Part shown: positions 15,832 through 35,222 of the stretch, piece by piece
Layout of the letters: the number at the start of each line of letters is the position of its first letter
Numbering within the stretch: the stretch's first letter is position 1
Origin: Polyangiales bacterium
GTDB taxonomy: Bacteria > Myxococcota_A > Polyangia > Polyangiales > Ga0077539
Direction: 5' to 3'
Assembly (NCBI GenBank): GCA_044229975.1
Contig: JBGARZ010000009.1
Coordinates: 219,947 to 283,946, forward strand
DNA: 64,000 nt
The notes under the pieces: generated by a model
What the model was told of the DNA's origin: nothing
The model's input: only the letters and a program-made list of their open reading frames with translations
Database searches by the model: none
Made by a program: the position numbers and the translations under genes

Positions 15832-15834
15832 CGC

Positions 15835-18054: not shown

Positions 18055-21000
18055 TCACTTCTCGAACGACGCGTCGGCGATGCCGAGCGTGCGGCAGTTC
18101 TCGCGTACGTTGCGAACGACCTCGGTGCTCGCCCCCTCGGGCATCTCTGCGTGCACCTCCAGCGTCACGGTCACCCTCGCCCCGGGCAGCGTCGCAAGGT
18201 GCTTCAGCACCTCCTTCGCGATGAGCTCCGCCCTGGCCGCGAGCTGGGTCGCTTCGACGTCGACGCTCGCGTGAAACCGCTTCGGCATCGCCTCTGGCGT
18301 CGGCGCCACCGCACCCGCCTTCGCCGCCCCACCGCGCGCGACCTCCACACCCGCTGGCGAGACCAGCGCGAAGGTACCCGACGGTGAGGCCTTCGGCACC
18401 GCCGTCCCCGCGCCCTCCGCCCGCGCCCGGTCGGCCTCCATCTGCGCTCGCGCGACCGCCGCCTTCACCAACACCGCGTCACCGTCCGCGCTCACCGCAG
18501 TGGAGGCAGTGCCCGCGCGCAGCCCCGCGTAGCGCCCCGTCTCGGCGTCGAGGCGCTCGGCCCAGGCGTAGGTCTCCGTCTCCCACGCGGTGTTGGCGAG
18601 CCCCTTGCCGATCGCGTCGATCAGCACCTTCGTACTCTGCAGCCGCGGGAGGTAGAGGTACTTCGCGAAGTCGTCCGCGAGCGTCTTCACCGGCACCGAA
18701 TCCCCGCGCCACAGCGGAACCCGGTCGAGGTGCATCTTCAGCATCGTCCCCCCGAGCTCGACGACCAGCAGGTCCTCCGCGCGCAGCTTCTTGCTCGCGC
18801 GCACCCCGAGGCCCTCGGCGCCGCCCGCTTGCAGTCGCAGCTCGCGCCACTCGCGCGCGGGCGGTGGGGCGCCGTCGTCCCCCCGTTCCTGCTCCGGGGC
18901 GAGCAGCAGACACCAGGTCTCGTGCAGGCGCAGTTGCACCGTCTCCCTCGCGGCCTTCTCCCGGGCCGTGGCCTGCGTCATCTGCGACGGTTGCAGATCG
19001 AGATCGTTCGCCTCCTTCACGATGCTCTTCCACGCGAGGAACTTCCGCACCGCCTCCTCCAGCTCCACCAGCCGCCGCCGGTCCGGCGCCAGGAACACCA
19101 CGCTGTTGCGATACGTCCGCGGCCCCGTCCCTCGGCCCTCAAGAATTTCCTCGGCGCGCAGCTTCCCCGGGCTGTCCGTCGCGTTGGGCGTGTGCGGATC
19201 GTCCGGGTCGAGCACCACCAGACCCGCCTCGCGCTCGTCAGGGACCTCCCCGCTCTTCCTCGGGGCCACGTACGTCGCGCGGAAGTCCCCGCGGTTCGCC
19301 GGGGTCTTGAAGTGCTCCTTCAGGCGCTCGACGATCTCCTGCGCGACCACGTCGGCCTTCCAGTCTGCAGCGCGGTCTTCCGCGAGGCGCGACACCGTCG
19401 CCTGGAGCCCGAGCCAGTAGCGCGAGCCCTCGGTGTAGAGGTGCGTGCCCCGCTCGACGAGCCGGCGCAGCGCGTCGCCGAAGGGCGCGATGGGCTCGCC
19501 GGGCTGCACGCACCCGAGGCGCACGCTCTTCTCGTCGATGCCGACGTGGGCCGCCCGCTGCACCGGCGCGGTCGCCATGAAGATGGTGCGCGCGACCCGC
19601 CGGGCGGCCGACACCTTGCCGAGGTTCACGTTCTCCTCGTCGATGCGCAGCGCGAGCGAACCCGGTCCGTCCACATCGCGCTCGATCACTGGACCCCACG
19701 GGTCGTCGAGGTAGCGGGCGAGCTCCGACTGCAGGTCCCGCGATGCCACCGGGATGCTCGCCGGGAGGATCATCAGCGTGCGGTCGCCCTCGTGGTAGAG
19801 GCGGTGCACCACCGTGGCCATGAAGCGCAGCACCCCGCGGGTGCGCTGGAAGCGCGGCAGGCTCGACCACTCCATCGACAGCCGATCGAAGAGCTCGGGG
19901 TGCAGCGGGTACGCCGCCTGGAGCTTGCGCTCGTAGTCCTTCTCCTTGCACTCCGCGGGGAACTCGTTCGGGTTCGAACGGTACAACTCCATGAACTTCC
20001 GGATCACCGTGTCGCGCGCCGCGAAGAGCGCGGGGTCGGTCACGGGCTGGAAGAGCCGACGCCGCACGATCTCGTAGCTCTCCTCCGACGAGGCGGCGCG
20101 CCAGGGCGACTCCACCCGCCCGATGGCGTTCTTCAGGCGCTCCAGGGCCTGGTGGCCGAAGGTGCCACCCACCTCGATGTCCTGCGCCTCGGTCTCCAGC
20201 CGCTGGCCCTTGCGGTCGCGCGCGACGAGGCTCTCAGACGCCGGGATGCTGACCACCAGCAGCGTGCGGGGGGCGGCCTTGGCGGCCTCGCTGAGCTGCT
20301 GCGCGAAGGTGAAGTGCGTGTCGAAGTTGCCGCCCGGCAGCTCCTTCGAGCCGAAGAGCTGGCGGGCGTAGGCGACCCACTCGTCGACCAGCACCACGCA
20401 CGGCGAGTAGCGCGCGAACACCTTGCGCAGCGCGTCGCCCGGGTTGGTCGCCGTCTCGTCGGACTCGCGCACCATCTCGTAGCCCTCGCGGCCGCCGAGC
20501 TGCCACGCGATCTCGCCCCAGAGCGTACGCACCTGGGTGCCGTCGTCCTTTCGCTCGGGCTGGCCCGGCGAGAGCTTGTTGCCCACGATCACCGCGCGGC
20601 GCACCGGCGGTAGGGACGAGACGCCCGCGCGTTCGAGCACCGGCTCCAGCCCCGGCAGGGTGGTCGGCGCCACGCCCGAGAACAGGTGATAGAGCGCCAA
20701 CATCGAGTGCGTCTTGCCGCCGCCGAAGGTTGTCTGGAGCTCGATCACCGGGTCGCCGCTGCCGCCACCAAGGCGCTGGAGCGCATTGGTCAGGAGCTGT
20801 TGCAATCCCTCGGTGAGGTAGGTGCGTCGGAAGAACTCCGCGGGGTCGCGGTACTCCTCGGAGGCGTCGCCAGTGACGACAGCCCAGAGGTCGGCCGCGA
20901 ACTGCGCGAGCTGGAAGGTGCCCTTCGCCACGTCGGCGTGCGGGAGCACGACCTCGCGCCACGGCTTGAGCCCGTCGCTCGGAGCGCCCTTGAGCTCGAC

Positions 21001-21399
21001 CTGGGAGTTCTTGCGCGACTCCTTGCGGGCCTCCTCCTCGAAGCGGGCGCGGAGGAGTTCCTGACGCAGGCGGTCGACCTCGGCCTCCTCGTCGCGCGCA
21101 GAGATGCCGGCGAGCAGGCGCGCGGCGTCGTCGAGCACCCGCCAGGTGGGGTCGGCGTCGAAGCGGGCGCGCTCGGAGATGCGCGCGCGGACCGCGCGGA
21201 GGTCTTCGACGAGGCGGCGGCCGGGCTCGCCGAGTACGCGCGCGGGGGCGGGCTCCCACTGGGCGAGGAGGTGGTCGAAGAGGCCGTCGGGCGATGCCGG
21301 GAGTTCGGCGGGGCCAAGCGCACGTTGGGCCCACGGGCGGAGCGCGGTGTCGATGAGGTCGAGGGCGCGGGTGACTCGTTCGAGGTTCGACAGGGACAT
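18055..21399 (-). CDS. DUF499 ATPase, BrxC/PglY-like, with an N-terminal Swt1-like HEPN domain
   Basis: Characteristic DUF499 P-loop ELQTTFGGGKTHSMLALYHLF and Walker-B-like VVLVDEWVAY. Size 1114 aa, typical of BrxC/PglY. Confidence 0.7.
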   Translation of the reverse strand: MSLSNLERVTRALDLIDTALRPWAQRALGPAELPASPDGLFDHLLAQWEPAPARVLGEPGRRLVEDLRAVRARISERARFDADPTWRVLDDAARLLAGISARDEEAEVDRLRQELLRARFEEEARKESRKNSQVELKGAPSDGLKPWREVVLPHADVAKGTFQLAQFAADLWAVVTGDASEEYRDPAEFFRRTYLTEGLQQLLTNALQRLGGGSGDPVIELQTTFGGGKTHSMLALYHLFSGVAPTTLPGLEPVLERAGVSSLPPVRRAVIVGNKLSPGQPERKDDGTQVRTLWGEIAWQLGGREGYEMVRESDETATNPGDALRKVFARYSPCVVLVDEWVAYARQLFGSKELPGGNFDTHFTFAQQLSEAAKAAPRTLLVVSIPASESLVARDRKGQRLETEAQDIEVGGTFGHQALERLKNAIGRVESPWRAASSEESYEIVRRRLFQPVTDPALFAARDTVIRKFMELYRSNPNEFPAECKEKDYERKLQAAYPLHPELFDRLSMEWSSLPRFQRTRGVLRFMATVVHRLYHEGDRTLMILPASIPVASRDLQSELARYLDDPWGPVIERDVDGPGSLALRIDEENVNLGKVSAARRVARTIFMATAPVQRAAHVGIDEKSVRLGCVQPGEPIAPFGDALRRLVERGTHLYTEGSRYWLGLQATVSRLAEDRAADWKADVVAQEIVERLKEHFKTPANRGDFRATYVAPRKSGEVPDEREAGLVVLDPDDPHTPNATDSPGKLRAEEILEGRGTGPRTYRNSVVFLAPDRRRLVELEEAVRKFLAWKSIVKEANDLDLQPSQMTQATAREKAARETVQLRLHETWCLLLAPEQERGDDGAPPPAREWRELRLQAGGAEGLGVRASKKLRAEDLLVVELGGTMLKMHLDRVPLWRGDSVPVKTLADDFAKYLYLPRLQSTKVLIDAIGKGLANTAWETETYAWAERLDAETGRYAGLRAGTASTAVSADGDAVLVKAAVARAQMEADRARAEGAGTAVPKASPSGTFALVSPAGVEVARGGAAKAGAVAPTPEAMPKRFHASVDVEATQLAARAELIAKEVLKHLATLPGARVTVTLEVHAEMPEGASTEVVRNVRENCRTLGIADASFEK

Positions 21400-21508: not shown

Positions 21509-22960
21509 CTATCGGGTCTTTTCCATTCGCGCCTGTAACGCCGCCAGCCGAGCGTTCATCCCTTGATGGCGATCATCGAAATCACGATGAGCCTGCCCGA
21601 TACGAACGAGTTCTGCATTCATACGAACGCTCTGCACCTGCCAGGCTTGCGCGCTGACTGCAAACCGGTGTGCAAGCGCGTCCTGAGCGACGACCAGCCT
21701 GACAGCACCGTTGGCCGTCGCCTGCAAGGCCTCACCCACCGCGGCGATTTGGGTGATGAGCGCAACCTGGGCTTCCCATGCCTCGCGATTCTCCGCTCTC
21801 CGCACGCCCTTCTTGAGGCCGTCATAGCCCGCACTGCCCAACAAGGACCCGACAAACGATCCCACCAACGCGCCCACGACCGGGATGGGAATCAGCACCT
21901 GCCCCGCGGCCGCACCGTACATACCCGCCACACCGGCCACGCAGCCGCCTGCGGTTCTGTCGCCAAACTGGGTTGCCGAGATTTCCCCCTGCGACAACCT
22001 GTACGCGTCGACCATCGCGCGAAGCACGACAGCCGTCATCGCACCAACAACCCCCGGGGTGACTGTACGCGCGGCCTCCCCCAACACCCCCGTCCGGCAC
22101 ATCACTTGTACCCCCGACGCGACAGCGCCGCGAAGGAATCCAGCACCGCCGCCATTGATCCCTTCTCTCGCGGCGGCCTTCAACGACTGGGTTGCACGCT
22201 CGCGATCACCCTCATAGGCACTCCGAAGGGTCGCGATCACATGAGGAGCGGCGGCCATGGCGGCTGAAATCGCGACCGCGCTCAACCCAGCCTTGGCCGC
22301 CTCGCGCGCAACATCCAACGGTTCGATGACCTGGTCGATCGATACACCGTAGTCACGGAGGTTCGCGTCCCCACGCTGTCCGTCCCTGGCGAGGCGGATC
22401 GCATCTTGTTGGTCCAGTGCATGGGACCGAGCGCCCCCGCCTTCCAGATGGTCACTCACGACATCCGCGGTATCACGCAATTGTGCAGCCTGCTCAGGTC
22501 TGTGGCCGTGAATACGGGCAGCACGCGCCAACGCCTCGGCCTGCACTCCATCCAACTGATCCGCCGGAGCGACCTTTCCCATGCCAGCATACTGAGGGTC
22601 GCTCAAAGCCTTCGCGGTCGCACCCGCATCGCGATGGTATTTGACCTGGTAGTCGACATGGCTGTGGCCCACGTGCAGGCGAGCGTCCGCCGGACCGTTG
22701 CCTCCGAGGCGTTCAGCTCGAACTTCGTGCAGGCCACTGCGTGCCGCGTCGACGTTGAACGCGCCAACGTGAAAGACCTCCGCCAGGAAGCCTTTGGCCG
22801 AGTGAAGCGAGTTGTTCCGATACTGCGCAGCGACCTCGTCAAGCATCTTGGAGAAGACAGCGATCGCCCCATCTACCGCGTCGGCGTAGGCTGCCCCATG
22901 CATCGCTCCATCTTGTGCGCCCACATGATCGCGCGCTCTGTCCGCATGTTCGTCGTTCAT
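21509..22960 (-). CDS. Hypothetical protein with a C-proximal glycine-zipper membrane segment
   Basis: GGCVAGVAGMYGAAAGQVLIPIPVVGALVGSFVGSLLGSAGYDG (GxxxG repeats). Stop overlaps the upstream gene start (ATGA). Confidence 0.45.
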   Translation of the reverse strand: MNDEHADRARDHVGAQDGAMHGAAYADAVDGAIAVFSKMLDEVAAQYRNNSLHSAKGFLAEVFHVGAFNVDAARSGLHEVRAERLGGNGPADARLHVGHSHVDYQVKYHRDAGATAKALSDPQYAGMGKVAPADQLDGVQAEALARAARIHGHRPEQAAQLRDTADVVSDHLEGGGARSHALDQQDAIRLARDGQRGDANLRDYGVSIDQVIEPLDVAREAAKAGLSAVAISAAMAAAPHVIATLRSAYEGDRERATQSLKAAAREGINGGGAGFLRGAVASGVQVMCRTGVLGEAARTVTPGVVGAMTAVVLRAMVDAYRLSQGEISATQFGDRTAGGCVAGVAGMYGAAAGQVLIPIPVVGALVGSFVGSLLGSAGYDGLKKGVRRAENREAWEAQVALITQIAAVGEALQATANGAVRLVVAQDALAHRFAVSAQAWQVQSVRMNAELVRIGQAHRDFDDRHQGMNARLAALQARMEKTR

Positions 22961-23919
22961 CTTGCTCCTACACTCAAATAGACTTCCAGAACCAGAACCG
23001 ACACTGCAAGTCCAACTGCCGCGGCTAGCGCAACCACCTTCCGGGTTGTCATCGGTCGGACGCCCATCAGATGAGGAGCAGCCACTTCCATTGCCCCACG
23101 CAGACGGGCTATCTCACGAGCCTGAACGTCGTGATCAGATTCCCTCTGCGCAATCGATTGTCGCAGCAGGGCGAGCTCTTGCGAAGCGCGCCGAGTCTGA
23201 ATATCGTGATCAGACTCCTTTTGCGCAATCGATCGCCGCAGAAGAGCAAGCTCTTGCGAAGTGCGATCACGCTCTTCGTGCATGATCATCTGTTGCTCAG
23301 CGAGCAAGAGCATCTGGTCGACGGTTCCTTGCACCTGGAGCAGGCGATCTGCCTGACCCGACTGAGTCGTGATCGCACCACCGACGGTATGTCGAAACGC
23401 TTCAAGCTCGGCATGGATCACCTGCGTCATCGCCATACTACGGGCGTTCGCTGCAAGCGCGACCCGCACGAGATGCACGGTGACGGCCTGCATCTTGACG
23501 ACGTCTTGCATGGCCAGCGCGAGATCGCGAGTATTGTTAGCGAACATCCGTCCGAAGAATCCCCGTTCAGCGATCTCCCCCAATCGATCCTGCGTCGAGA
23601 GCACCAGCGACGACAGGTCGCGGAATGCAGTTCGGACCTCCTCGGCTCGCTGCATGATCTCGGAGCCGTGCGCAGCCTTCGCGAGGCTCGATGTCCATGG
23701 AACCATCGAGCCAGCGCCGTCCGAACCCGCCATGGCACCAAACCTCCCGGAACTCACATCAATCCGCGGTCGGACGCTGTCCGTTCCACTTCGGCCGCGG
23801 AGACTGCCAGCGAAGGGCCCTCGTGGGAAGGACCTTCTCGGACAGTCGAGCGTCAAAGGACGGACGACGATGTCGTTCCGTCGGTCGAACTCCCAGCGGA
23901 GCAGCTCGACCTCGCAGTT
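22957..23919 (-). CDS. Hypothetical coiled-coil protein with a C-terminal transmembrane helix; contains a 66-bp tandem repeat
   Basis: Two copies of SQELALLR.SIAQ.ESDHD.Q.R. C-terminus KVVALAAAVGLAVSVLVLEVYLSV. Lower GC than the surroundings. Start uncertain; I took the GTG after the upstream stop, and the track ORF extends to 24108. Confidence 0.4.
   Translation of the reverse strand, partial: NCEVELLRWEFDRRNDIVVRPLTLDCPRRSFPRGPFAGSLRGRSGTDSVRPRIDVSSGRFGAMAGSDGAGSMVPWTSSLAKAAHGSEIMQRAEEVRTAFRDLSSLVLSTQDRLGEIAERGFFGRMFANNTRDLALAMQDVVKMQAVTVHLVRVALAANARSMAMTQVIHAELEAFRHTVGGAITTQSGQADRLLQVQGTVDQMLLLAEQQMIMHEERDRTSQELALLRRSIAQKESDHDIQTRRASQELALLRQSIAQRESDHDVQAREIARLRGAMEVAAPHLMGVRPMTTRKVVALAAAVGLAVSVLVLEVYLSVGAR
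23110..23285. repeat. Intragenic tandem repeat, about 66 bp x 2.5
   Basis: cgtgatcagattccctctgcgcaatcgattgtcgcagcagggcgagctcttgcgaagcgcg and cgtgatcagactccttttgcgcaatcgatcgccgcagaagagcaagctcttgcgaagtgcg. Confidence 0.6.
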
Positions 23920-23947
23920 CACAGGGTGAATGGTCGCATGCGGACGC

Positions 23948-24478
23948 TCAACCCGCTCTTCGCCCGCCGTCGAGGCCGCCAGCACACTGCGCCTGCCAGC
24001 ACGCAACGGCCAGGGCGAGCGCCTCGTCGAGCGAGTCGCAGCGCCGCATGTGAGGATGGAGCTTCGCAGCGGCCCAGAGGTAGTTGCGGCCTTCGGTCGT
24101 GGGTGCAATCACGAAGAACGTCGGAATCCTCGCGCCGAGCAGGAAGCCGAACTCGCACCGGCTGGCGAGGGCCTTCGACGCCGCGTCCAGATGGAAGACC
24201 ACGCAGATGGCGTCGCGGAGGCCCGCGTGCTCTCGAGCGACGAGTGCGTCGACATCGGCCTGGCGAGCGTCCCCGTTGCTGGCATCGATGCCCGACCAGT
24301 CTGTGGCGGTCGGGTCGAAGCCGGGGACTCCCGCCTGATGGAGCGCCGCGAGCAATGGCAGACGCCACGGCGTCGATATGGAGCCATACAGTGCAACAAG
24401 ACCAGATCGTGATGCGACGGTGGACGAGGTTTCAGACTCAATCATTGGAGTCACGCGGGGAGGATGTTCGGCGAGCAC
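23948..24478 (-). CDS. Hypothetical protein (176 aa), possible Rossmann-like fold
   Basis: GC3-biased ORF directly downstream of the deaminase gene: LVALYGSISTPW...ICVVFHLD...FFVIAPTTEGRNYLW. No confident family. Confidence 0.4.
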   Translation of the reverse strand: MLAEHPPRVTPMIESETSSTVASRSGLVALYGSISTPWRLPLLAALHQAGVPGFDPTATDWSGIDASNGDARQADVDALVAREHAGLRDAICVVFHLDAASKALASRCEFGFLLGARIPTFFVIAPTTEGRNYLWAAAKLHPHMRRCDSLDEALALAVACWQAQCAGGLDGGRRAG

Positions 24479-24528
24479 TTCAACGCTCGGAAGATGGTAA
24501 ACGACGACGCCCGCGGATTGTACCGCTG

Positions 24529-27144
24529 TTAGGCCTTACGCCCACCCGTGGATGGTCGCGATGCAGTGCTCCACGGTGGCGGTAGCAGCTCCCGTAGTGC
24601 CTCCCGATCGGCGCTGGCCGCCAGCGTGAACCGTGCTCGCATCCCGTTGCGCCGCGCCTCGTCGAGCCACGCGAGCGCTTGCCGTGCCGAGAGGTCGCGC
24701 CGCGAGAGCGCGTGGAAGATGTGCGCGTACTCGTCCGAGAGGCAGCTCGCGAAGGTCGCGGGGTTGTCAGTGTTGATCGAGAGCAGTACGTCGGGTCCGA
24801 CCGCCGCCGTCGCCCCGCCCACGGCCTCCGGCAGCGGCTGCAACCTGAACGCGGGGTGGTGCTCCAACGAGTCCAGGTTGCCCAGCAGGAGGTTGCACGA
24901 GGGGTTCGCCTCGACGGTGATCTCCAGCTGCCCGAGCTTGCGCCGCAGCCACGCCTGCAGCCTCCCCGCGACTGCCGTCTCGGCCTCCGTCGAGACGACC
25001 TCGACGACGTCCTGACCGCGCGCGAAGACCTCGCCCTCGCGCAGGTAACGCCAGAGCAGCAGCTCCGCGCCCTTCAGCCCGTCCGAGGTCCGCCGCACGG
25101 GGTAGCCCAGCCTCCGCAGCACGCGCGGGTCGTGCCGCAGCCGCCGCGCCTCGCCGTGCTCGGCGAGTGAACGCTCCTCGTCATAGATCGCCTTCGCGAG
25201 CCTCGTCGCCTCAGCCCGCACGTACTCCACCCGGCCCGCGTCGCCACTGAGGTCGCCGGTGCCGTAGCGATCCAGTTCCCAGAGCAGATCGTCGAGGCGC
25301 TCCTCGGCGGGTTGCATCACCAGCGGGGCGGCCTGCGTGTGGCGGGCGACGTCGACCCCCAGCACCAGCGCGTGCCCGATGCGGTCGCCCGTGTGCAGCA
25401 CGTGAAACTCCACCAGTTCGTGCACTCGGCGCAGGCCCTCCATCGCCCGCCGCCAGTCCTCCCCGGCGTGCACCGAGGTGCGGAACAGCTCCGGCTTCCA
25501 CCGCGGCTGCCGCCGCGCCAGTACCCGCGCGACCTCCGACGAGGCCCTCCGCAGCTGGTCGAAGAGCGGAACCGTCACCCACGTCGGCACGGCGAGCTCG
25601 ACATTGCAGACGTCAACGCTCCGCAACAAAATCAGCAACTCGGGACGAAGTCGTAGCGCCGTCTCGATCGCCTGCACCCGTTGCCACTGGTCCCGAAACC
25701 ACGGACCGAAGCGGTAGCCGAAGGCGGCGTTGTCGGGGTCGCCCTGCATCCGCTGCTTGCCACCCTGCGTGCGCTCCCAGCGCTTTACGAAGTGGAAGAT
25801 GAGCCCGACCTCGGGGCGCACCCGCCCGATGAGCGGCTCGAAGTCATGCGCCTGCCGGGCGAGCGCCCGCACCTCGTTGCGCACCTTGAACCAGCGATTG
25901 GCTGGCGTCGTACGCATCTCCAGGGCGCGCAGGTTCAGGTCACGCGACTGGGACATCAGCGCCTCCGCGTAGTAGTCAAACGTGGCGAGGTCGCGCAGCG
26001 GCGCGAGCCGGTCGTAGCGCTGGGTGAACCAGTCGAGCCCGCCCGTTCCTGGTTCCTGCACCAGGAAGCGGAAGGTCAGGCTGCGCACCCGGGTGTATTG
26101 CCAGAAGAGCTGCGCGAAGGTCGTGTCGTCGCGTCCGTCGCGGAGGAGATATCCAATCGCGCGACTGGCGAATCGCGTCTCCGGCGAGACCGACTCGGTC
26201 GGCGGTAGCCACGCCTCCAGCGGATCACGCACCTTCGAGCGGGGACCCGGGCGATGGGAGAGGCTGATGTAGAAGCGCCGGAGGACGGCGTTAGGGTGAC
26301 GCTGGTCCTGGCCGAGGAGCAGGGAGTTGAGCACGCTGGAGAACAGCGAGCGGGCGCCCTCGCCCTGGAAGCGGCGCAGCGTAGCATCGAGTCTCGGCAG
26401 GAATCGACGGAGGTATTCGTCGAGGGTGCCGCGGATGGTCCCCTCCTCGCGTCCCTGGAGGAAGCCCGCGAGCACCAGCCGGGTGATCTGCGCCGCGAGG
26501 AGATGTCCGATGAAGACCTTCGCGCTGTCGAAAGGCACCCTACCGCCGCGGGCGAGCTTCTTCTCGTCGGGTAGCGCTTCGAGGAGGCCCCGTGCGAGCA
26601 GTCCCCAGAGGCAGCCGAAGGAGAGAGCGGCGCCGACGTGGAGATGGCCCTCCGCGCAACCCTCGTCGAGGACCTGGCGGAGCTGCGGAGTGACGAGGGT
26701 GACGTGTTCGGTGGCGGGGTCGCGCCGGTCGGCCGCCGCGAGGGCCGCGACGAGGAGGTCGGAGGGGAGCGCGAGGGTGATCCAGCGCCAGCACTCGGCG
26801 CGGGCGTGGAGGTCGGAGTCACGGTGGAGGCAGACGGTGGTCCCGTCGGCGGAGAGCCATTGGCAGGCGGTCGTGGCGAGCACCTCGGCGAGGGACGCCG
26901 ATCGCGCGGGGTGGGAGAGCCAGAGCTGGTTGCGCTGCTGGCGGAGGGCGTCGAGGGTGGTGCCGGAGGCGCGCGGGCGGAGCCAGTCCTCTAGGGACGT
27001 CCAGAGCCTGCCGGTGGACTTGTCGGGGACGCCGGCGGCGTCGCGGCCGAGGGTGACGGTCGCGGCGCGGAAGGCGGGCTCGGCGCCGAAGGGCCAGGCG
27101 ATGACCTCCGCGGCGGCGCGGTGGTGGTGGCTCGCGGGGTCCAT
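24529..27144 (-). CDS. rdrB: Large divergent adenosine deaminase (amidohydrolase fold), RADAR RdrB-like
   Basis: Adenosine/AMP-deaminase metal-binding signatures in order: HLHVG, SVHAGEDW, GDRIGHALVLG, SINTDNPATF. 871 aa. ATG 3 nt after the stop of the upstream ATPase. Confidence 0.6.
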   Translation of the reverse strand: MDPASHHHRAAAEVIAWPFGAEPAFRAATVTLGRDAAGVPDKSTGRLWTSLEDWLRPRASGTTLDALRQQRNQLWLSHPARSASLAEVLATTACQWLSADGTTVCLHRDSDLHARAECWRWITLALPSDLLVAALAAADRRDPATEHVTLVTPQLRQVLDEGCAEGHLHVGAALSFGCLWGLLARGLLEALPDEKKLARGGRVPFDSAKVFIGHLLAAQITRLVLAGFLQGREEGTIRGTLDEYLRRFLPRLDATLRRFQGEGARSLFSSVLNSLLLGQDQRHPNAVLRRFYISLSHRPGPRSKVRDPLEAWLPPTESVSPETRFASRAIGYLLRDGRDDTTFAQLFWQYTRVRSLTFRFLVQEPGTGGLDWFTQRYDRLAPLRDLATFDYYAEALMSQSRDLNLRALEMRTTPANRWFKVRNEVRALARQAHDFEPLIGRVRPEVGLIFHFVKRWERTQGGKQRMQGDPDNAAFGYRFGPWFRDQWQRVQAIETALRLRPELLILLRSVDVCNVELAVPTWVTVPLFDQLRRASSEVARVLARRQPRWKPELFRTSVHAGEDWRRAMEGLRRVHELVEFHVLHTGDRIGHALVLGVDVARHTQAAPLVMQPAEERLDDLLWELDRYGTGDLSGDAGRVEYVRAEATRLAKAIYDEERSLAEHGEARRLRHDPRVLRRLGYPVRRTSDGLKGAELLLWRYLREGEVFARGQDVVEVVSTEAETAVAGRLQAWLRRKLGQLEITVEANPSCNLLLGNLDSLEHHPAFRLQPLPEAVGGATAAVGPDVLLSINTDNPATFASCLSDEYAHIFHALSRRDLSARQALAWLDEARRNGMRARFTLAASADREALRELLPPPWSTASRPSTGGRKA

Positions 27145-27147
27145 GCG

Positions 27148-30100
27148 TCAGGGCTTGGCGGGCCGCTTCCGGGCGCCTCCCTTTGCCCCGGAGTCTTTCC
27201 GCGTAGTCGATGCGCGGGCGGAACGCTGCCCAACCTTCGGTGCTGCTACCTCATCAGAAGGCGCCTCGATCCGATCGACACGGTCATACCAGGGATGTTC
27301 TGGAAAGCTCGAGCGCAGATGAGTGAATATCGGGCGGATGGCATCTGGCGAGTCGCAGAATCGAGCGGCCCACTCCACTCGGAGAGCCTTGAGAGTGTCC
27401 ACCGTCTCGCCGCCGACACCTAGAACCGTGGTGAGAACATGGCCTGCAACGGCTGGTGACACGCCAAGTTCAGGGGTCGCGAAGAGACCAAGTTCCCGTC
27501 GGAAGGTAGCGTAGTCACCGTGGTCCACCATTTCCGGCTTAGACTTCTTCCATGTGACGAGATCGCGAAGGAGGGTCTGCCAGTTCTGCCCGGTTGGCTC
27601 ACCCGTAAAATGCGCCGTCTGAACGCTCGACTCCCCCAGCAACCGGCGCGTGTTCTGGAGACAGCTGTAGAGCATGGCATCTACACGCCACTGAGGATCT
27701 GACACAGACCGAAGCTCACGCTGGTCGATCTGCCGAAGCGCCTCGTTCCAGGCATCCTCAATCTCAGAAACGTCTCCATACTGAAACCAATACAGAGCAG
27801 GCCAATAGAACTCCGGTCCATTGTCTCCGACCATGCATCGGACACCCTCCCACGGAAAGAAACCTACCCTCCTCGGGGTTGGGATCACAGAATTCGACGC
27901 GGCGTAGTCTGTCGCAATGGAATACACTGCATCGCAAGGCGACTGAAGCCGTAGGTCGTCCACGGTGACTCGAATTTCCCCGATCTCGTAGGTCCCAACG
28001 ACCAGATCTCCAGGAAGTGCAACCTGCCTCGTCGGGTGCTCGACCGTTTCGCGCGTGAACCGAAGGCCGTTCGTCTCGATACGCTGTTCGTCGCCCGGGA
28101 CCACTCGAACGGCCTTTCCAAAACGCTGCTGCTTCGTCGCGGAGATCGAAGCGTGCCACAATTCTGCAATGATCCGAGCTGTCGGAACGCTGCCGAACCG
28201 GTTTTCCTCAAGCACCCTCCTCATGACGTCAACGGCGTTGCGCGGCGCGCGAGAGAGCCTCCGCCGAACGAAACCGCTCAGGCGGTTACTCCCAACCAGA
28301 TTTCCCAGGCTTTGAATGAGGTCGGCGACATCCTTGGTCGGCGCCCGTCCCGCAACTCCGACCCCAGCAAACTTCAACCATGGATGATCCGTGGCGGCCA
28401 CCTCGTCGATCGCGTTCCGATAAATCGCGATCTGCGCCTCGTCCGTCGGTCGCCTCCGCAACGGAACCATTCGATGCGCAACGCCACGTCGAATCATCTC
28501 ATTTCGCGCGATCACCAACTCATCACGCAACGCAGACGCCCAAAGTCTTTCTCCAAACTCCTTCCTGAGCAGTTTCAGCCAGGACATAGCTGACTCGGGA
28601 GGAAGTCCACATTCAGGTGCTCCCAGCAGAGCCACCCGGGAGCGGGCCCAGACGGCGAAGGACTTCGCTCGTGGTGTTGTCGCCCGTTGCACTCCTAACC
28701 TGGCAACGCGAGGCGCCAACTCGCTCCACTTCGGCGCCTGAGTTTCCGACTCGTTCAAACGAATAGTTGGATCAGCCAGCTCGGCCTGATCGAGAACTAA
28801 TCCGACCAGAGTCCGGGCGAGGTGGTCAATGTGTCCTGCCCCCCAGGCACTACCAAGGCATGATTCACGCCACCTTCTTTCGACAACAATCGCATCCAAC
28901 GGAGACACCCAATCCGGGACGGGCCACGAAATAGGCAACACATCATCCCAAATGGCACCCTCAGCGGTGTCCCGACTCTCGGCAGCACGAGACAAGAACC
29001 GAACACTCGAAATGCAGTACCGATCGAAGACTGAAACACTTCCAAATTCATTGAACGGCGGAAAAGGACCGTCGGTAAGTGCGTCCTCGTGCATCATCGC
29101 CACAAGTGCGGACGTCGATGCGCCAGACAAAGACGCCGCTTCCTGCGGACGGTCAGCGCTCAGACCCGACCCACCCGGCGGCTCGATCCACCAGTGCGCC
29201 AGGGTTTGGAATGTGAGATCCGTTCCGGATCCGCTGGATGACGTATGGATGCCACGCCAATCGGCCCGAAGTCGAAACTCGCCACTTCTGACTCGAATTG
29301 ATCCGTCATCGGTATCAAAGAGAACATCCCGGCTTCTGCTCCGGAGGGCCAAGGACTTCGCATCATCTTCAATCGCGTGTCTCCAGAGATCGCGGAGAGC
29401 TGCGGCGCGGTTTCGATCGCCGACCTTCAGCGTCGCCGCCCGTCGGGTGCGAGCAGTCGTGGTCCCTTCGGCGGATCGCGTCGGCATGATAGCTTCGGAC
29501 CAACCGAACCAAACCGAGTCCGCCCGCAAGACGCCTTCTTGGAGCTGTCGGAGATTGCCGGGTAGCGCAAGGAGAAGCTCCGGAAGAGCCTTCATATATC
29601 CGCTCAGAGGCAAGCGCCCGTCGTGCGTCAGGTCGTCAATGCGACAAACCAGGGAGTTCATGGATACTCGTGACGTTCCCCTTCCACTCTCCGCCCCGCG
29701 AACATCTGAGTCAAAGTGCACCTCCCATCGATCACGCACGGCAATCTCGCTCAACGCGAATCGCTGGCTTTCAGGCACCGACTTGCTGAAAATCTGCCTG
29801 GAGATCTTCGCCGCCTTTTCGAGGCTTCCGTCTTCGAACGCAGGCGTCCTTCCAGAGTCGGAGGCCGCACTACCCAGCCGAATGTCGCGCAGAACCGAAT
29901 GCCGCAAAACGAGCTCAAATAACTCGCTGTCACCGGCAAGGACGATAGCAAACCGAGGATGCCACAACATCCTGATAATATCGATCAACTCCGGTACTCT
30001 CATGACATTCATATCACCATCATCAATGGGCAATACAAACAGCGGCGCTCGATCCCTCCAGTGCATTGCGCTGGCAAAGTCCTTTGCGAAGCAGTCCATC

Positions 30101-30831
30101 AGCTTTCCGAAGGATGATCTCACATCCATTCGGTCCGCCTCAACCTGCTGAAGCTCGTCCACGTAGCTCTCGAGATCGAGTCCGCCGCTCCGCCCCTTCA
30201 TGACGTCGTCCCACCCGATCACGACGGTGCTCATAAAGCCCCTCCAGGCATCGAAGGCCCCTGATCGAGTGCCCATCGTTTGCCAGGCAGTTCGCTCGAT
30301 GGTCCCCTCACCCGGGAGCCCGCGCTGAATCGCCTCGGCGATCGGGCGAAGACGGGTGGCGATGTGCGCCAGAAGATGCGTCGACTTCGGCAAGGGCTGC
30401 AGATCGAGAATCTCAAGCGGCACCACTTGAGAGCCCGTATAGACCTTCTGGAGGCTCTCCGCGACGAGCTTGCTGTCGAGCATCGGCCCCTGCACCTTAG
30501 GCTGAGGACGGCCTCGAATTGCGTTATTCCAGTGACCGAGAATCGATAACAGTACCGCGGTCTTTCCCGTACCCCGATCGCCGTCGATTAGGGCAACGCG
30601 ATTCGATCGCGCCTGATCAATGCGAGGAAGCACCAATTCGATCACGCAATCGCGCGACTCTCCTTGGATGTTCCCGGCGGTCGTCTCCTTCGCCATCGCG
30701 TCGACTAGATCAAGGATTCGCCGCGTCGCCCACCGCTGGTCCTCAGTCATCTCGTGCCAGTCCAGCGGCCGCGCCTCCGCCCTCGGCCCGCCGCTCACCC
30801 GATTCTCCCCGCCGCCGTTCGCGCTCGTCAT
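27148..30831 (-). CDS. rdrA: Large P-loop NTPase (KAP/AAA-like, 1227 aa), RADAR RdrA-like
   Basis: Walker A ALIDGDRGTGKTAVLLSIL, Walker-B-like FVLPIDDGDM (KAP-type hhhhDDxD). GC about 57%, versus about 70% around it. Immediately precedes and is coupled to the deaminase gene. Confidence 0.5.
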   Translation of the reverse strand: MTSANGGGENRVSGGPRAEARPLDWHEMTEDQRWATRRILDLVDAMAKETTAGNIQGESRDCVIELVLPRIDQARSNRVALIDGDRGTGKTAVLLSILGHWNNAIRGRPQPKVQGPMLDSKLVAESLQKVYTGSQVVPLEILDLQPLPKSTHLLAHIATRLRPIAEAIQRGLPGEGTIERTAWQTMGTRSGAFDAWRGFMSTVVIGWDDVMKGRSGGLDLESYVDELQQVEADRMDVRSSFGKLMDCFAKDFASAMHWRDRAPLFVLPIDDGDMNVMRVPELIDIIRMLWHPRFAIVLAGDSELFELVLRHSVLRDIRLGSAASDSGRTPAFEDGSLEKAAKISRQIFSKSVPESQRFALSEIAVRDRWEVHFDSDVRGAESGRGTSRVSMNSLVCRIDDLTHDGRLPLSGYMKALPELLLALPGNLRQLQEGVLRADSVWFGWSEAIMPTRSAEGTTTARTRRAATLKVGDRNRAAALRDLWRHAIEDDAKSLALRSRSRDVLFDTDDGSIRVRSGEFRLRADWRGIHTSSSGSGTDLTFQTLAHWWIEPPGGSGLSADRPQEAASLSGASTSALVAMMHEDALTDGPFPPFNEFGSVSVFDRYCISSVRFLSRAAESRDTAEGAIWDDVLPISWPVPDWVSPLDAIVVERRWRESCLGSAWGAGHIDHLARTLVGLVLDQAELADPTIRLNESETQAPKWSELAPRVARLGVQRATTPRAKSFAVWARSRVALLGAPECGLPPESAMSWLKLLRKEFGERLWASALRDELVIARNEMIRRGVAHRMVPLRRRPTDEAQIAIYRNAIDEVAATDHPWLKFAGVGVAGRAPTKDVADLIQSLGNLVGSNRLSGFVRRRLSRAPRNAVDVMRRVLEENRFGSVPTARIIAELWHASISATKQQRFGKAVRVVPGDEQRIETNGLRFTRETVEHPTRQVALPGDLVVGTYEIGEIRVTVDDLRLQSPCDAVYSIATDYAASNSVIPTPRRVGFFPWEGVRCMVGDNGPEFYWPALYWFQYGDVSEIEDAWNEALRQIDQRELRSVSDPQWRVDAMLYSCLQNTRRLLGESSVQTAHFTGEPTGQNWQTLLRDLVTWKKSKPEMVDHGDYATFRRELGLFATPELGVSPAVAGHVLTTVLGVGGETVDTLKALRVEWAARFCDSPDAIRPIFTHLRSSFPEHPWYDRVDRIEAPSDEVAAPKVGQRSARASTTRKDSGAKGGARKRPAKP

Positions 30832-30895: not shown

Positions 30896-33757
30896 TCACC
30901 CCATCCCCGGCAGTCCCCGTTGCGCCGGCGTCTCCGCCACGCTCGACGCCTCGCCCGCAGCCGCCGCCAGCTTCGCCACTTCGGGCCACGCGGTCACCAG
31001 CCCGTTGTAGGCCAGCGCCTCCGCCGCCCACTTCTTCCGTTCGCACAGGCTGTACAGCCGATAGGCCAGCTCGCGCGCCGCCTCGCCCTGCGCGCCTACC
31101 CGCGCCAGCAGCTCGCCCGCCGCCCGCTCGCCCTTCGCCTCCAGCGCGCGGATCAGGTGCTGCGCCACCTCCCACACCGTCCGCCGCGCGTCTGTCGCCG
31201 GGTCCCAGTCGGCCGACAGCTCCGCCCGCGTGAGCAGCGCCACCTTGCCGCGCGACGACCGCAGGACGCCCGCCTCCACCAGCCCCGCCACCGAGGTGTT
31301 CTTCGCCCGCGCCAGCGTGTCGGCACTCCCGAACTCCGCCTCGCCATACTGGTGCTGCTCGAACCACGCGAGGGCGCAGCGCGTGTCGGCGTCGAAGTCA
31401 CCCTCCTGCTCGGAGAGCACCTCGTCGAGCACCTGGTTGATGATCTGTAGCGCGGTGCGAACGCTCATCGCCGACCCGTCGGACTCCAGCACCTTCGCGT
31501 ACGACGAGAACACCGCCATCCCCGGTCCGATCGCCGCCTGCGCGAAGTCCACCGGGGCGATGTTGCCCTGCTGGAGCAGCTTGAGGTCCCGCGGGAGCGT
31601 GCGCTTCAGGGCGCGCAGGAAGTCCGATCGGGTCGCCGAGGGGGCGTCGTCCGCGCGCTTGCGGCAGACGAGTACGATCGAGGAGGCGAGGGCGTTGATG
31701 TGCTTCTTGATGTTACCGGTAAGCTCGGTCCTTACCGGCCAAGTCCCGTGCACGACGAATCCTGAACCCAATAGACTGGAAAGCATCGTCTCCCAACCAG
31801 ACGACGCAACCACGCCACCACCGGCATCGCCCTCGCCATCAGACTCAACCTGCTTGAATGCGTAGTAGACCGCGAGTGGATACCCTTCGACTTGACGCTC
31901 GTATATCCGACCGAATGCGATACGAATCTTCTCTTCGAAGAAGTCCTTCGCCCTCGCCAGATCGCCACCGTGTCGGTGCTGCGAAGCGACCAATTCCGAG
32001 TTCTTGGGGACGGTGATTGTGGCAAAAAGGTTCGGATACAACAGGCCCACCGAACGCCTGAGCCATACGTAGAAAAAATCCGAGAGGTCGGCGTAGCCGA
32101 TGTTGTCATAATACGGCGGATCGGTGCTCACCACGACCCCTTCGGGACCGCCCGGCTCACAGGCATCGGCTTGAAAGGCTCTCCCAAGGCATGTCAAATC
32201 GGCGGGAATTCTAAGCAGGTTCTGGTAGACACCGTCGACTTGGCTAATAAAATTTCCACTAGACTCGCTGAACGGATTCCCCTCGGCATAGTCCCACGTC
32301 ATCGTGAGCGCCTGCCTCGCAAACGTACTGGTGATCGTCTCGTACTTAGCTCCCGAGTGCCACGAGCACAGCATCGAAGAATAGTTCACCAGACGGTCAA
32401 CAGCGAATGACAAGAACACAGCAATCGCTTCCCCGTAACCAGCCTTGGCAGGATCACTCAACGGGCGGACGTCCTTCAATACCTCCGCTCGCACCTCTTC
32501 GACGAGACCGGAGAGGGTCGCGAGGGTGTTCAGTTGCCGAGGTGTGAAGGCGTCTGCCCATTCGTACATACCGTACATTGGCAACCGATCGACATCATGG
32601 CTCGGTGTCGTCACCCTCTCAGACGGACGCCAATGCGACTGTGCCGACGCTGCGATTGATGCGTGGCTATCGATGGACGACAGATATATCCTGGCCCTTT
32701 TGCCCTCGGCAACGATCGCGGTAGGAATCGATCCCATGCGTCCCGCCTGCGCCTCCTCGCGCACATAAGAGAGCTCAAATTCGTTCTTGCAGGCAAGGCA
32801 ATATGCGCTGCGAGCGCGAACGGTCCCCACTGACTCGCCAGCACCCTTTTCGACGCGAAATCCACCTCTACCTCCGAGCGCCTTGGGGTCGGCGACCAGG
32901 TGATATTCTTTGCCAGGCTTTGTCGCGAGGGATAGTGATCGAATCAGCGGCGCGGTGGCATTGCATGCGGGATTCGGACACTTCACCGTCCGAGCCCAAA
33001 GCCACGCGATGACCGTCGCCTCTCCGCCGCCGTGCTCCGTCGATAGTGTCACCTTCGGATACAGGTGTCCAATCCGCTTGAAGGCCTCATCCCTCATCCA
33101 CGTCCCGTAATACCGGACGTCCTCCGCGAGCCCCTCGGCGCCCTTCCACGTCCGCATCTTCTGGTTGCGCTGCGACTCCGGGTTCACCGGCGGCTGCCCC
33201 GCGAACTTCGGCGGAATCTCGATCAATGCCTTGTTGATCAGCACCGCCACCGGGTTGAGGTCCGTCGCGATGGCCCGCAGCCCGAGCCGCTGCGCCTCCA
33301 ATGGAATGGTCCCGCCCCCCGCGAAGGGGTCGTGCACCGGCGGCAGCGCCGTCGCGAGGTACTGATTGACCACCGCGGCCGCGGGCTTCTCCCCGAGGAT
33401 CACGTCGGCCCGCGGGTCGTCCCGGTGGAAGCGCGCGTGCGACTGCGCGATCTCCCGCCGCGCCTCGTTGATGATGGCCTCGTCGTGGCTCGCCTCCCAC
33501 GGCACCATCCGCTCGATCAGCCGGAACAGCCGCTCGCGCTCGCGCTTCTGCCCGGCCTCATCGCCCTGGAGTTCGGGCCAGGTGCTCGGGTCATCCACGA
33601 GTTGCGCGAACAGCACCGCGCGCGCCGCCGCCAGCGGTCGCCGCGCCCACCAGAGATGGAGCGTCGAGGGGTGCCCGTGGCGAATGGACTTCTCCCTCCC
33701 GGCGGCGGCGTTGATGGCTTCGAGCGGGAGCGCGACCTCGATGAGCTTCTTGGGCAT
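30896..33757 (-). CDS. DUF1156-type DNA methyltransferase (N6-adenine or N4-cytosine, DPPY class)
   Basis: N-terminus MPKKLIEVALPLEAINAAAGREKSIRHGHPSTLHLWWARRPLAAARAV (DUF1156 signature). Motif I DPFAGGGTIPLEA. Motif IV STDPPYYDNIGYADLSDFFYVWLRR. Confidence 0.75.
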   Translation of the reverse strand: MPKKLIEVALPLEAINAAAGREKSIRHGHPSTLHLWWARRPLAAARAVLFAQLVDDPSTWPELQGDEAGQKRERERLFRLIERMVPWEASHDEAIINEARREIAQSHARFHRDDPRADVILGEKPAAAVVNQYLATALPPVHDPFAGGGTIPLEAQRLGLRAIATDLNPVAVLINKALIEIPPKFAGQPPVNPESQRNQKMRTWKGAEGLAEDVRYYGTWMRDEAFKRIGHLYPKVTLSTEHGGGEATVIAWLWARTVKCPNPACNATAPLIRSLSLATKPGKEYHLVADPKALGGRGGFRVEKGAGESVGTVRARSAYCLACKNEFELSYVREEAQAGRMGSIPTAIVAEGKRARIYLSSIDSHASIAASAQSHWRPSERVTTPSHDVDRLPMYGMYEWADAFTPRQLNTLATLSGLVEEVRAEVLKDVRPLSDPAKAGYGEAIAVFLSFAVDRLVNYSSMLCSWHSGAKYETITSTFARQALTMTWDYAEGNPFSESSGNFISQVDGVYQNLLRIPADLTCLGRAFQADACEPGGPEGVVVSTDPPYYDNIGYADLSDFFYVWLRRSVGLLYPNLFATITVPKNSELVASQHRHGGDLARAKDFFEEKIRIAFGRIYERQVEGYPLAVYYAFKQVESDGEGDAGGGVVASSGWETMLSSLLGSGFVVHGTWPVRTELTGNIKKHINALASSIVLVCRKRADDAPSATRSDFLRALKRTLPRDLKLLQQGNIAPVDFAQAAIGPGMAVFSSYAKVLESDGSAMSVRTALQIINQVLDEVLSEQEGDFDADTRCALAWFEQHQYGEAEFGSADTLARAKNTSVAGLVEAGVLRSSRGKVALLTRAELSADWDPATDARRTVWEVAQHLIRALEAKGERAAGELLARVGAQGEAARELAYRLYSLCERKKWAAEALAYNGLVTAWPEVAKLAAAAGEASSVAETPAQRGLPGMG

Positions 33758-33977
33758 TGGGCGGCGCGCAGTCTGCGCCCCGACGCGTCCCGCCGGGAAG
33801 AGGGAACCACCCCGCGGCCTCGGCGCCGTTCCTCCATCGGGGGACTGCTTTGCCCCTGGTGGCGCTGACTATTCCTGACCGGTGGCTGCGGGCCGGTGCG
33901 CCACGAGTTCGGCACGAGCGCACCTGCATCAAGGAGCTTGCGTTCGCTCCCTTTTGTCCGCTCTCGGGGCGGTCCGC

Positions 33978-35203: not shown

Positions 35204-35222
35204 GAGCGGGTTCGGAGTGGGA

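Follow-up and report, generated by a model that had tools for sequence, protein, structure and literature searches.

Embedded genes have been described in 62.7% of Hma systems, where they are usually co-oriented and are often defence systems, and seven of the nine embedded candidates tested gave phage protection (Payne et al., 2024, bioRxiv 10.1101/2024.01.29.577857). That census admitted no more than three embedded genes between hma genes, and among the candidates of the study is PDC-M09, a two-gene cassette listed as CAS_00055 (FAM_02775>>FAM_02807) (Payne et al., 2024). PDC-M09 has 380 RefSeq instances, and a literature search found it mentioned in supplementary table 8 of that study only and in no paper text. 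Another system to be compared is SNIPE, in which a nuclease bound to the membrane cuts phage DNA as it is injected; such tethering can both protect against phage and keep the nuclease from cleaving the cell's own DNA (Saxton et al., 2025, bioRxiv 10.1101/2025.11.03.685801). The locus described here lies in a 64,000-nt stretch of DNA from a Polyangiales bacterium (contig JBGARZ010000009.1), referred to in its whole length as the window, whose nearest relatives are metagenome-assembled genomes of Polyangiales and "Deltaproteobacteria". Within positions 21509-24478, the list of open reading frames (ORFs) of the window places three on the minus strand, at 23948-24478 (ORF A), 22957-23733 (ORF B) and 21509-22960 (ORF C), and this interval is read as two unrelated pieces of horizontally acquired cargo, embedded with a RADAR-like gene pair between hmaB and hmaC.

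The best explanation of the whole, held tentatively and at slightly less than an even chance, is that ORF B and ORF C would encode a tail-anchored regulator and a membrane-tethered nuclease effector, embedded beside a separate gene, ORF A. A preliminary description of this DNA had taken the three ORFs for a single membrane-associated module, which does not hold, as ORF A accompanies no relative of the B-C pair and its sole relative follows a gasdermin-CHAT operon. The same description had also considered an independent abortive-infection pair; what stands of this is an independent two-gene membrane-associated B-C module, as indicated by its conserved coupled partner and its defence neighbours, abortive infection being one of two possible outcomes considered below. 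A word-indexed search with ORF C returned seven related clusters, and all of its close relatives with enough flanking DNA have an ORF of 180-234 aa immediately upstream; in L002, L003-L005 and L007-L010 (loci are given here by number) the two genes overlap by 4 nt. In the window, the overlap is the ATGA at 22957-22960, in which the stop of ORF B (TGA) meets the start of ORF C (ATG), exactly as originally described. With clusters drawn at 50% identity, an exhaustive profile search recovered 2,190 representatives of the ORF C family at E ≤ 1e-3, of which 316 reach E ≤ 1e-30 and most are 450-530 aa long; the public database has one protein identical to ORF C itself (P0001). A genome scan located 51 loci in Myxococcota, Desulfobacterota, Bacillota, Bacteroidota, Spirochaetota, Cloacimonadota and Chloroflexota, 48 of which have a tightly coupled upstream ORF, at gaps mostly of -38 to +28 nt; matches on plasmids extend the family to Pseudomonadota and Deinococcota. 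Viruses are nearly devoid of it, with two matches in 2.9 million viral contigs (IMG/VR) and one in 50,697 phage records.

The partners of the ORF C family belong to mutually unrelated families, which are referred to here as type-1 and type-2, with a few singletons. The type-1 partner, present in 42 loci, consists of an uncharacterised N-terminal domain and a mid-protein hydrophobic segment, and has no match in Pfam, PADLOC (43 partners, E ≤ 0.001) or the PDB. It was also found by hhalign to be unrelated to ORF A and to ORF B, and the idea that these two might jointly substitute for it was rejected for that reason. The type-2 partner is the ORF B family, found in the window and in L003, L007, L013, L014, L015 and L020. 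The last ~100 residues of the C protein follow the type of partner, where a tail with QDYxLP/RRGV is found in 39 of the 43 proteins with a type-1 partner and in none of the seven with a type-2 partner, in which the tail is instead a long helix. Since tail type co-varies with partner type, the tail of ORF C may well serve as a partner-docking element. Among the type-1 partners, the N-terminal domain is Rossmann-like in look (for example, at L017:9408-9989, L043:9298-9921 and L006:892-1440), with a consensus, among the members most similar to L016/L017, of IIVVAPE...W..K.Y.DNE...YV..GN..EN, and it makes up a separate domain family that is uncharacterised. A Polyangiaceae relative of ORF C (L047:881-2830) has an upstream partner of 649 aa with several glycine-rich hydrophobic segments, which represents a third partner architecture.

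A search with ORF B returned exactly those proteins that lie upstream of ORF C homologues, always directly upstream, and these share an invariant motif, RGF[FW]xR[MLV][FL]xNNTxDLAxAM (aa 57-75 of ORF B). No match to ORF B was found in Pfam, PADLOC, PHROGs or the PDB, and NCBIfam gave a weak HlyD-like match only (aa 128-235, E 4.8e-4). The C-terminal transmembrane (TM) helix first reported for this protein is borne out by hydropathy (Table 1); it is preceded by arginine and lysine residues, is followed by just seven residues and is kept in all type-2 partners. The internal tandem repeat, in contrast to the 66 bp first given for it, has a period of 75 bp, with 2.0 copies and 83% matches in Tandem Repeats Finder (TRF) and 84% identity in a second repeat search. 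When copy number was compared among homologues, the 25-aa unit was single or absent in all of them, the closest included. The duplication is not recent, given the 84% identity between its copies, and it would lengthen the stalk by ~3.7 nm if helical (25 residues x 0.15 nm). For the coiled coil first attributed to ORF B, the one indication is the HlyD-like match, and a crude heptad score gave no coiled-coil signal over the repeat.

As for ORF C, nothing was found for it in Pfam, NCBIfam or PHROGs, nor for its family in PDB-sequence profile searches, and a Foldseek search of the full-length model against the PDB gave no significant match. A conserved N-terminal domain, resembling PD-(D/E)xK enzymes, had been missed in the preliminary description. 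The AlphaFold2 (AF2) model of the full-length protein is confident for aa 25-215 only, and a model of this domain alone has a predicted local distance difference test score (pLDDT) of 88.4 and a predicted template modelling score (pTM) of 0.83. Its elements, which are a helix at 52-74, strands at 80-84, 93-97 and 100-106, a helix at 112-119 and a strand at 128-130, follow the order alpha-beta-beta-beta-alpha-beta that forms the core of PD-(D/E)xK enzymes. In this model, E61 lies in the first helix, D92 just before strand 2, and K107 ends strand 3 within (Q/S/G)-x-K. In this predicted core topology ORF C resembles the members of the PD-(D/E)xK superfamily used for comparison (YaeQ, NgoMIV/Cfr10I/Bse634I/BsaWI/PfoI, PaqCI, AvaII, HindIII and the CdiA-CT toxin of B. 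pseudomallei), with a conserved Glu in the helix that precedes the sheet, an Asp where strand 2 begins and x-K where strand 3 ends. Conservation was computed over 127 representatives of the ORF C family sharing ≤50% identity, in which G57, E61, D92, K107, Y124, Q135 and S179 are conserved at 95-100% and H64 at 91%, with E61, D92 and K107 themselves invariant at 99-100%. The scores for the fold assignment are modest, and the model makes a PD-(D/E)xK fold likely for this domain, with its catalytic competence rated lower than the fold. In enzymes of the Cfr10I/NgoMIV type, SxK takes the place of (D/E)xK, and a helix contributes the acidic residue.

Downstream of this domain, ORF C has 11 GxxxG motifs, nine of them within aa 260-390, and a contiguous zipper of G363-G367-G371-G375, which bears out the glycine zipper originally noted. 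In the sequence of ORF C alone, the excess of GxxxG is modest (shuffle P about 0.02 and 0.05); across the family, P360 is conserved at 91%, G363 at 89%, G367 at 99% and G371 at 98%. The TM segments that had been supposed for this interval were checked by hydropathy, and of these the helix of ORF B was recovered, while in ORF C a single stretch, aa 339-377, broken by IPIP, is the only clear membrane segment, and the helices of aa 217-330 are weakly hydrophobic (Kyte-Doolittle 1.3-1.6). Hydropathy and the lysine- and arginine-rich segment that follows residue 377 suggest that ORF C would be anchored by a helical hairpin with both ends cytoplasmic, as opposed to a classical multi-pass arrangement, and the hairpin is a probable membrane anchor or insertion element. 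With the predicted PD-(D/E)xK-like domain in place, a tethered nuclease would be at least as likely as a pore.

The same membrane region links ORF C to PDC-M09. ORF C matches the PADLOC models for PDC-M09B (PDLC04409, E 7.3e-14; PDLC04408, E 7.3e-12) over aa 219-392 only, corresponding to positions 240-402 of a profile of 480, and PDC-M09B is matched by all eight close members and by 44 of 48 diverse members of the family, with a best E of 3.4e-49. For ORF C, this match points to a common membrane region rather than to demonstrated orthology. In the search for PDC-M09A, ORF B and five of its homologues had no PADLOC match at E ≤ 1, and the 43 type-1 partners had none at the cut-off given above. 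The pair resembles PDC-M09 in that two co-oriented genes, the second encoding a protein of ~480 aa, are embedded in or lie beside other defence systems, recurring in Hma (the window), in BREX (L062) and beside a type III restriction-modification (RM) system (L002). It is unlike PDC-M09 in that its match is restricted to the membrane/zipper region and its partner ORF B matches no PDC-M09A model. With a match confined to this stretch of ORF C and with partners for which PADLOC gave no match, the pair in the window is regarded as a distant relative of PDC-M09 and not as a member, and as an embedded defence candidate related to it.

Relatives of the pair stand not in housekeeping contexts only but also beside or inside RM, BREX and other defence genes. 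A scan of 109 flanking proteins from 43 loci, in which family counts are aggregated over loci, found BREX PglX, PglZ and BrxL (two each), AAA_21, SMC_N, WYL, MADS mad3 and AriA to be recurrent, as well as N6_Mtase, MmeI, Eco57I, ResIII and Schlafen; some housekeeping families, named further below, were recurrent too. One such example is L062, where the pair lies directly between PglX (E 5e-219 to PDB 8c45) and PglZ/BrxL (E 1e-275 to 8emc), and this is a second, independent case of embedding. In L002 the pair follows a type III RM operon, and in L001 its neighbours are an AAA_16 ATPase and an IS21 element. On the Acinetobacter soli plasmid pAS843-2 (L066:6016-7796), the annotation splits a homologue of ORF C into two overlapping coding sequences, owing to a frameshift or a sequencing error, in an island with genes for a type I methylase, AAA ATPases, DUF3696, HNH and DUF262. 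Next to the type-2 B-C pair of L003, positions 6490-10162 hold genes for a helix-turn-helix protein, a PNP_UDP_1 (nucleoside phosphorylase-like) protein, a 327-aa unknown protein and a resolvase, which looks like another small defence or mobile cassette.

In the mechanism proposed for the pair, the glycine-zipper hairpin of ORF C would hold the cytoplasmic N-terminal PD-(D/E)xK-type domain at the inner membrane, where ORF B, as a tail-anchored cytoplasmic helical protein, would dock on the tail of ORF C and either keep the nuclease inactive or target it. A phage-related cue at the membrane would then release the nuclease, allowing ORF C to cut incoming or nearby nucleic acid, and the outcome would be direct defence by location, as with SNIPE, or abortive infection if host nucleic acid were cut. 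The likeness to SNIPE would lie in a nuclease domain at the inner membrane with the bulk of the protein cytoplasmic, placed where DNA enters and off the chromosome. SNIPE is a single protein with a single N-terminal TM helix, DUF4041 and a GIY-YIG nuclease, whereas ORF C would combine a PD-(D/E)xK-like domain, a hairpin and a helical tail with an obligatory partner, and the two have no sequence or fold relationship, so that the resemblance would be one of analogy.

Several observations weigh against this proposal. Two positions ahead of the Lys, most of the 127 representatives carry Q, S or G, and only seven carry E; with the acidic residue in the middle of (D/E)xK replaced in most, the domain could be a binding module and not a catalyst. 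Sequence searches connect the domain with no nuclease family of Pfam, NCBIfam or the PDB, the membrane segments are called from hydropathy with an AF2 confidence below 50 for aa 217-441, and some relatives have housekeeping neighbours, such as major facilitator superfamily (MFS) transporters, GMP synthase and methyl-accepting chemotaxis proteins (MCPs). The alternative that best survives, and in essence the one first supposed, is a pore acting in abortive infection, in which the zipper hairpin of a triggered ORF C, together with its flanking amphipathic helices, would oligomerise and depolarise the cell, with the N-terminal domain sensing nucleic acid and ORF B acting as inhibitor or antitoxin. 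Colicin-type pore domains have a hydrophobic hairpin among amphipathic helices, of which the hairpin of ORF C among its weakly hydrophobic amphipathic helices is reminiscent, and the PDC-M09B match is confined to this membrane region. G363, G367, G371 and P360 are also as conserved as the putative active site, and it is this equal conservation of the zipper, along with the usual loss of the middle acidic residue, that keeps the pore a live alternative, if a somewhat unlikely one. Set against it, a single hairpin would be a minimal pore element, fold searches gave no match to a known pore-former, and the near-complete invariance of E61, D92 and K107 over such diverse clusters is hard to square with a mere sensor and favours catalysis.

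The block in which the pair lies is itself part of a larger system, as genes for a HmaA helicase, a HmaB methylase and a HmaC ATPase, all on the minus strand, make up an Hma system around it (Table 1). The DUF499 gene at one flank of the interval had been recognised as such in the preliminary description but not as HmaC, and because it is HmaC and a matching HmaB is present on the other side, the block is cargo embedded in the Hma system. The gap between hmaB and hmaC (21509-30831) holds five genes in three units, which are the RADAR-like pair, ORF A and ORF B-ORF C; five exceeds the three-gene limit of the published Hma census, and such loci therefore fall outside it. Like other cargo embedded in Hma or BREX (Septu, BrxU, HEC-01 to HEC-09), these units are nested between core genes, co-oriented and of different GC; unlike the HEC systems, none of the three is a validated HEC system, and they comprise five genes where the limit was three.

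Table 1. Features of the embedded block and of the Hma genes around it (window coordinates)
Feature	Position	Strand	Evidence and remarks
ORF A, solo nucleoside deoxyribosyltransferase (NDT)-like protein, 165 aa (176 aa if GTG 24478 used)	23948..24445	-	Pfam PF15891; homologue P0008
Spacer ORF A/ORF B, 214 nt	23734..23947	-	Sequence read directly
ORF B, tail-anchored helical protein, type-2 partner, 258 aa	22957..23733	-	Alignments with homologues
ORF B tandem duplication, 75 bp x2 (25 aa: RTSQELALLRRSIAQKESDHDIQTR / RASQELALLRQSIAQRESDHDVQAR), helical stalk	23117..23265	-	TRF and repeat search
ORF B C-terminal TM helix, aa 233-251	22981..23037	-	Kyte-Doolittle maximum 2.57 over 19 aa
ORF C, conserved core protein of the pair, 483 aa	21509..22960	-	ORF list; start overlaps ORF B stop
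ORF C N-terminal domain, predicted PD-(D/E)xK restriction-endonuclease-like fold, aa ~25-215	22316..22888	-	Predicted; candidate active site E61, D92, Q105-x-K107
ORF C Pro-kinked glycine-zipper hydrophobic hairpin, aa 339-377 (...GQVLIPIPVVGALVGSFVGSLLGSAGY)	21830..21946	-	Kyte-Doolittle maximum 2.11
ORF C C-terminal helical tail, aa 392-483, partner-type-specific	21512..21787	-	AF2: one long helix, H392-482
HmaC, DUF499 ATPase, downstream flank of cargo	18055..21399	-	PADLOC HmaC E 4.6e-299; Pfam DUF499 and HEPN_Swt1
RADAR-like pair	24529..30831	-	RdrA-like 27148-30831 (PADLOC RdrA 6e-9); RdrB-like 24529-27144 (PADLOC RdrB 1.5e-26)
HmaB, DUF1156 methyltransferase, upstream flank of cargo	30896..33757	-	PADLOC HmaB E=0
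HmaA, helicase, further upstream	35223-38345	-	PADLOC HmaA E 1.1e-255

The RADAR-like pair scores weakly against RADAR models, with 111 bits for RdrB (NCBIfam; cut-off 800) and 34 for RdrA (cut-off 600), and its GC at third codon positions (GC3) is split, at 0.65 in the RdrA-like and 0.89 in the RdrB-like gene. This gives the pair a mosaic appearance, and it may be something other than canonical RADAR. The region as a whole forms a defence island. Downstream of HmaC, at 6930-18039, lies a Druantia-like cluster with DruE (PADLOC E=0) and a 334-aa DruD-like protein, which also holds a 734-aa protein without a match and a UvrD-like helicase whose N-terminus is weakly ParE-toxin-like. Upstream of HmaA, at 38373-40946, an 857-aa protein matches kinase-type defence models (MADS mad6, 2.6e-37; PD-T4-6; PDC-M55C at the N-terminus). 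In the ~1.5 kb between hmaB and hmaA (33758-35222), the sole ORF scanned, at 33882-34778 on the plus strand, has no PADLOC match, and this segment may hold another small embedded or Hma-associated gene.

The three ORFs are of lower GC than their neighbours, as had been stated at the outset, both in overall GC (ORF C 0.638, ORF B 0.593 and ORF A 0.669, against 0.716 in HmaC and 0.689 in the whole window) and in GC3 (ORF C 0.69, ORF B 0.63 and ORF A 0.77, against 0.93 in HmaC and 0.89 in the RdrB-like gene). An independent gene call exists for an identical public contig (L067), in which the products are of 165, 258 and 483 aa. The ORF of the 176-aa protein first described for ORF A is thereby upheld while its start is not, the ATG at 24445 (165 aa) being likelier by this gene call and by alignment with the homologue P0008. 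Plus-strand ORFs, for example that at 23071-24585, were taken as antisense ORFs typical of high-GC DNA, and were set aside because the minus-strand ORFs have conserved homologues and the L067 gene call lists only minus-strand genes. The spacer between ORF A and ORF B has a GGAGG at 23743-23747, with the ATG of ORF B (23733) 9 nt further on, and is probably the site of a promoter belonging to the ORF B-ORF C pair. Sigma-70-like promoters and terminators were looked for in the spacer and interval and none was detected; an Rfam scan of the interval and its immediate flanks gave no match, and an inverted-repeat search of the interval found nothing notable.

The other piece of cargo, ORF A, matches Pfam PF15891 (Nuc_deoxyri_tr2) at E 1.2e-6 and 29.2 bits (cut-off 30) over positions 6-96 of 105, a match that is also weak in the L067 gene call, and PF05014 at E 0.0079. 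A Glu-x-Gly is characteristic of NDT-superfamily enzymes, and ORF A keeps it in the motif SRCEFGFLLG. NDT-like domains have been shown to act as effectors of type II retrons (PMC7736814), and the superfamily is described in the literature as including the nucleotide N-glycosidases DNPH1 and MilB, which hydrolyse nucleotide N-glycosidic bonds. ORF A is like the NDT effectors of type II retrons (Retron-Eco1/Ec86, Sen2, Eco3) in having a near-complete Nuc_deoxyri_tr2-type domain with its Glu-x-Gly kept, and unlike them in being a bare 165-aa domain with no DNA-binding extension and no retron reverse transcriptase or non-coding RNA; with DNPH1 and MilB it would share the NDT superfamily, at a score just under the Pfam cut-off. 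A PDB profile search with the ORF A family gave no sequence match. Among 5.8 billion proteins, ORF A has one relative, P0008, with 63% identity and a precomputed PF15891 match, and metagenome scans with the RdrB-like protein and with the ORF A alignment returned no relatives. The P0008 gene lies directly after a gasdermin-Metallophos-CHAT protease operon on the same strand, with no RADAR there (L011:1537-6748, L012), and may be an accessory of that operon or a mere defence-island neighbour. By tblastn, no homologue of ORF A was found near any relative of the B-C pair in 69 loci, beyond the window's own copy in L067.

ORF A is probably a nucleotide or NAD N-glycosidase-type enzyme that is mobile on its own, and it is most simply regarded as a stand-alone nucleotide-targeting cargo gene. 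An alternative would tie ORF A alone to the RADAR-like pair, for example as an N-glycosidase acting on a deaminated (d)ITP/IMP pool or on another nucleotide, with B-C independent of both. The 83 nt between the stop of the RdrB-like gene, which is of deaminase type, and the ORF A start, on the same strand, would suit such a tie, as would the hydrolysis of nucleotides by DNPH1 and MilB and the role of NDT-like domains in retrons. It is nevertheless unlikely, as the lone homologue follows a gasdermin operon without RADAR, in a sample of one relative to which two metagenome scans added none, and the GC3 of ORF A differs from that of the RdrB-like gene.

It is also quite improbable that the B-C pair is non-immune, with a membrane-associated role for a mobile element or for the cell itself, such as in entry exclusion, in the uptake or processing of DNA or in envelope stress, and that it merely hitch-hikes in variable regions. 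The housekeeping neighbours of several relatives (SusD, in addition to the MFS, GMP synthase and MCP genes mentioned above) would fit this, as would the UmuC/YolD-like genes that adjoin some plasmid-borne copies. Against it stand the recurrent flanking defence families, the great rarity of the pair in phages, and its repeated embedding in defence operons, in Hma here and in BREX in L062, a setting made highly predictive of defence by the seven of nine embedded candidates that protected against phage (Payne et al., 2024).

By tblastn of the RdrA-like and RdrB-like proteins against the 69 loci, only the window's own copy (L067) was found, with none detectable in the other 68, and the gene tables of L001-L013 hold no RADAR-sized pair. 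Scans of ORFs A, B and C with PADLOC and NCBIfam matched no Rdr model, the presence of RdrC/RdrD models in PADLOC being unverified. As no RADAR or NDT-like genes occur at other B-C loci, neither the three-ORF module nor a role as RADAR accessory is supported. That the three ORFs, or B-C alone, would be RdrC/RdrD-like accessories of the RADAR-like pair, as first proposed, and would act as membrane effectors downstream of RdrA/RdrB, is highly improbable and largely refuted by locus contexts, for although they adjoin the RdrA/RdrB-like genes on the same strand in the same embedded block, and RADAR reportedly has small membrane-protein accessories, no RdrA- or RdrB-like gene is found at other B-C loci or at that of the ORF A homologue, the GC3 of all three differs sharply from that of the RdrB-like gene, and ORF B is preceded by a 214-nt spacer and a separate ribosome-binding site.

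What is new here is the size of the ORF C family, a nuclease-like domain with a conserved triad, the hairpin anchor, the modularity of partner and tail, and ORF B as a new partner family. With five genes between hmaB and hmaC, Hma systems can hold larger embedded cargo than the published census allowed, and looser limits in guilt-by-embedding screens should yield more candidates. If ORF C were an ordinary abortive-infection pore instead of a tethered nuclease, the reading of this interval would still be corrected, as the three ORFs are neither one module nor RADAR accessories. Taken further, and as a possibility that is more doubtful than the proposal for the pair itself, the ORF C family might be a class of immune effectors, membrane-tethered PD-(D/E)xK nucleases, that is widespread but has gone unrecognised, whose tails have co-diversified with interchangeable partners and which would discriminate self from non-self by location, cutting nucleic acid only where it turns up at the membrane, as has lately been shown for the unrelated SNIPE. 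Such a class would span seven or more phyla and no fewer than 2,000 clusters (50% identity), would be covered by no Pfam family and would have at least two unrelated partner families plus rarer ones; within it, the B-C pair of the window would count as a rare branch from myxobacteria, its tail-anchored partner being new. Should the reading proposed for the pair hold, a large "hypothetical" family, captured in part by PDC-M09, would gain a concrete and testable mechanism, defence by location would have, beside SNIPE, a second and independent instance in a membrane nuclease on a glycine-zipper hairpin under a swappable partner, and the family would provide a clear case of modularity between an effector core and a sensor partner.

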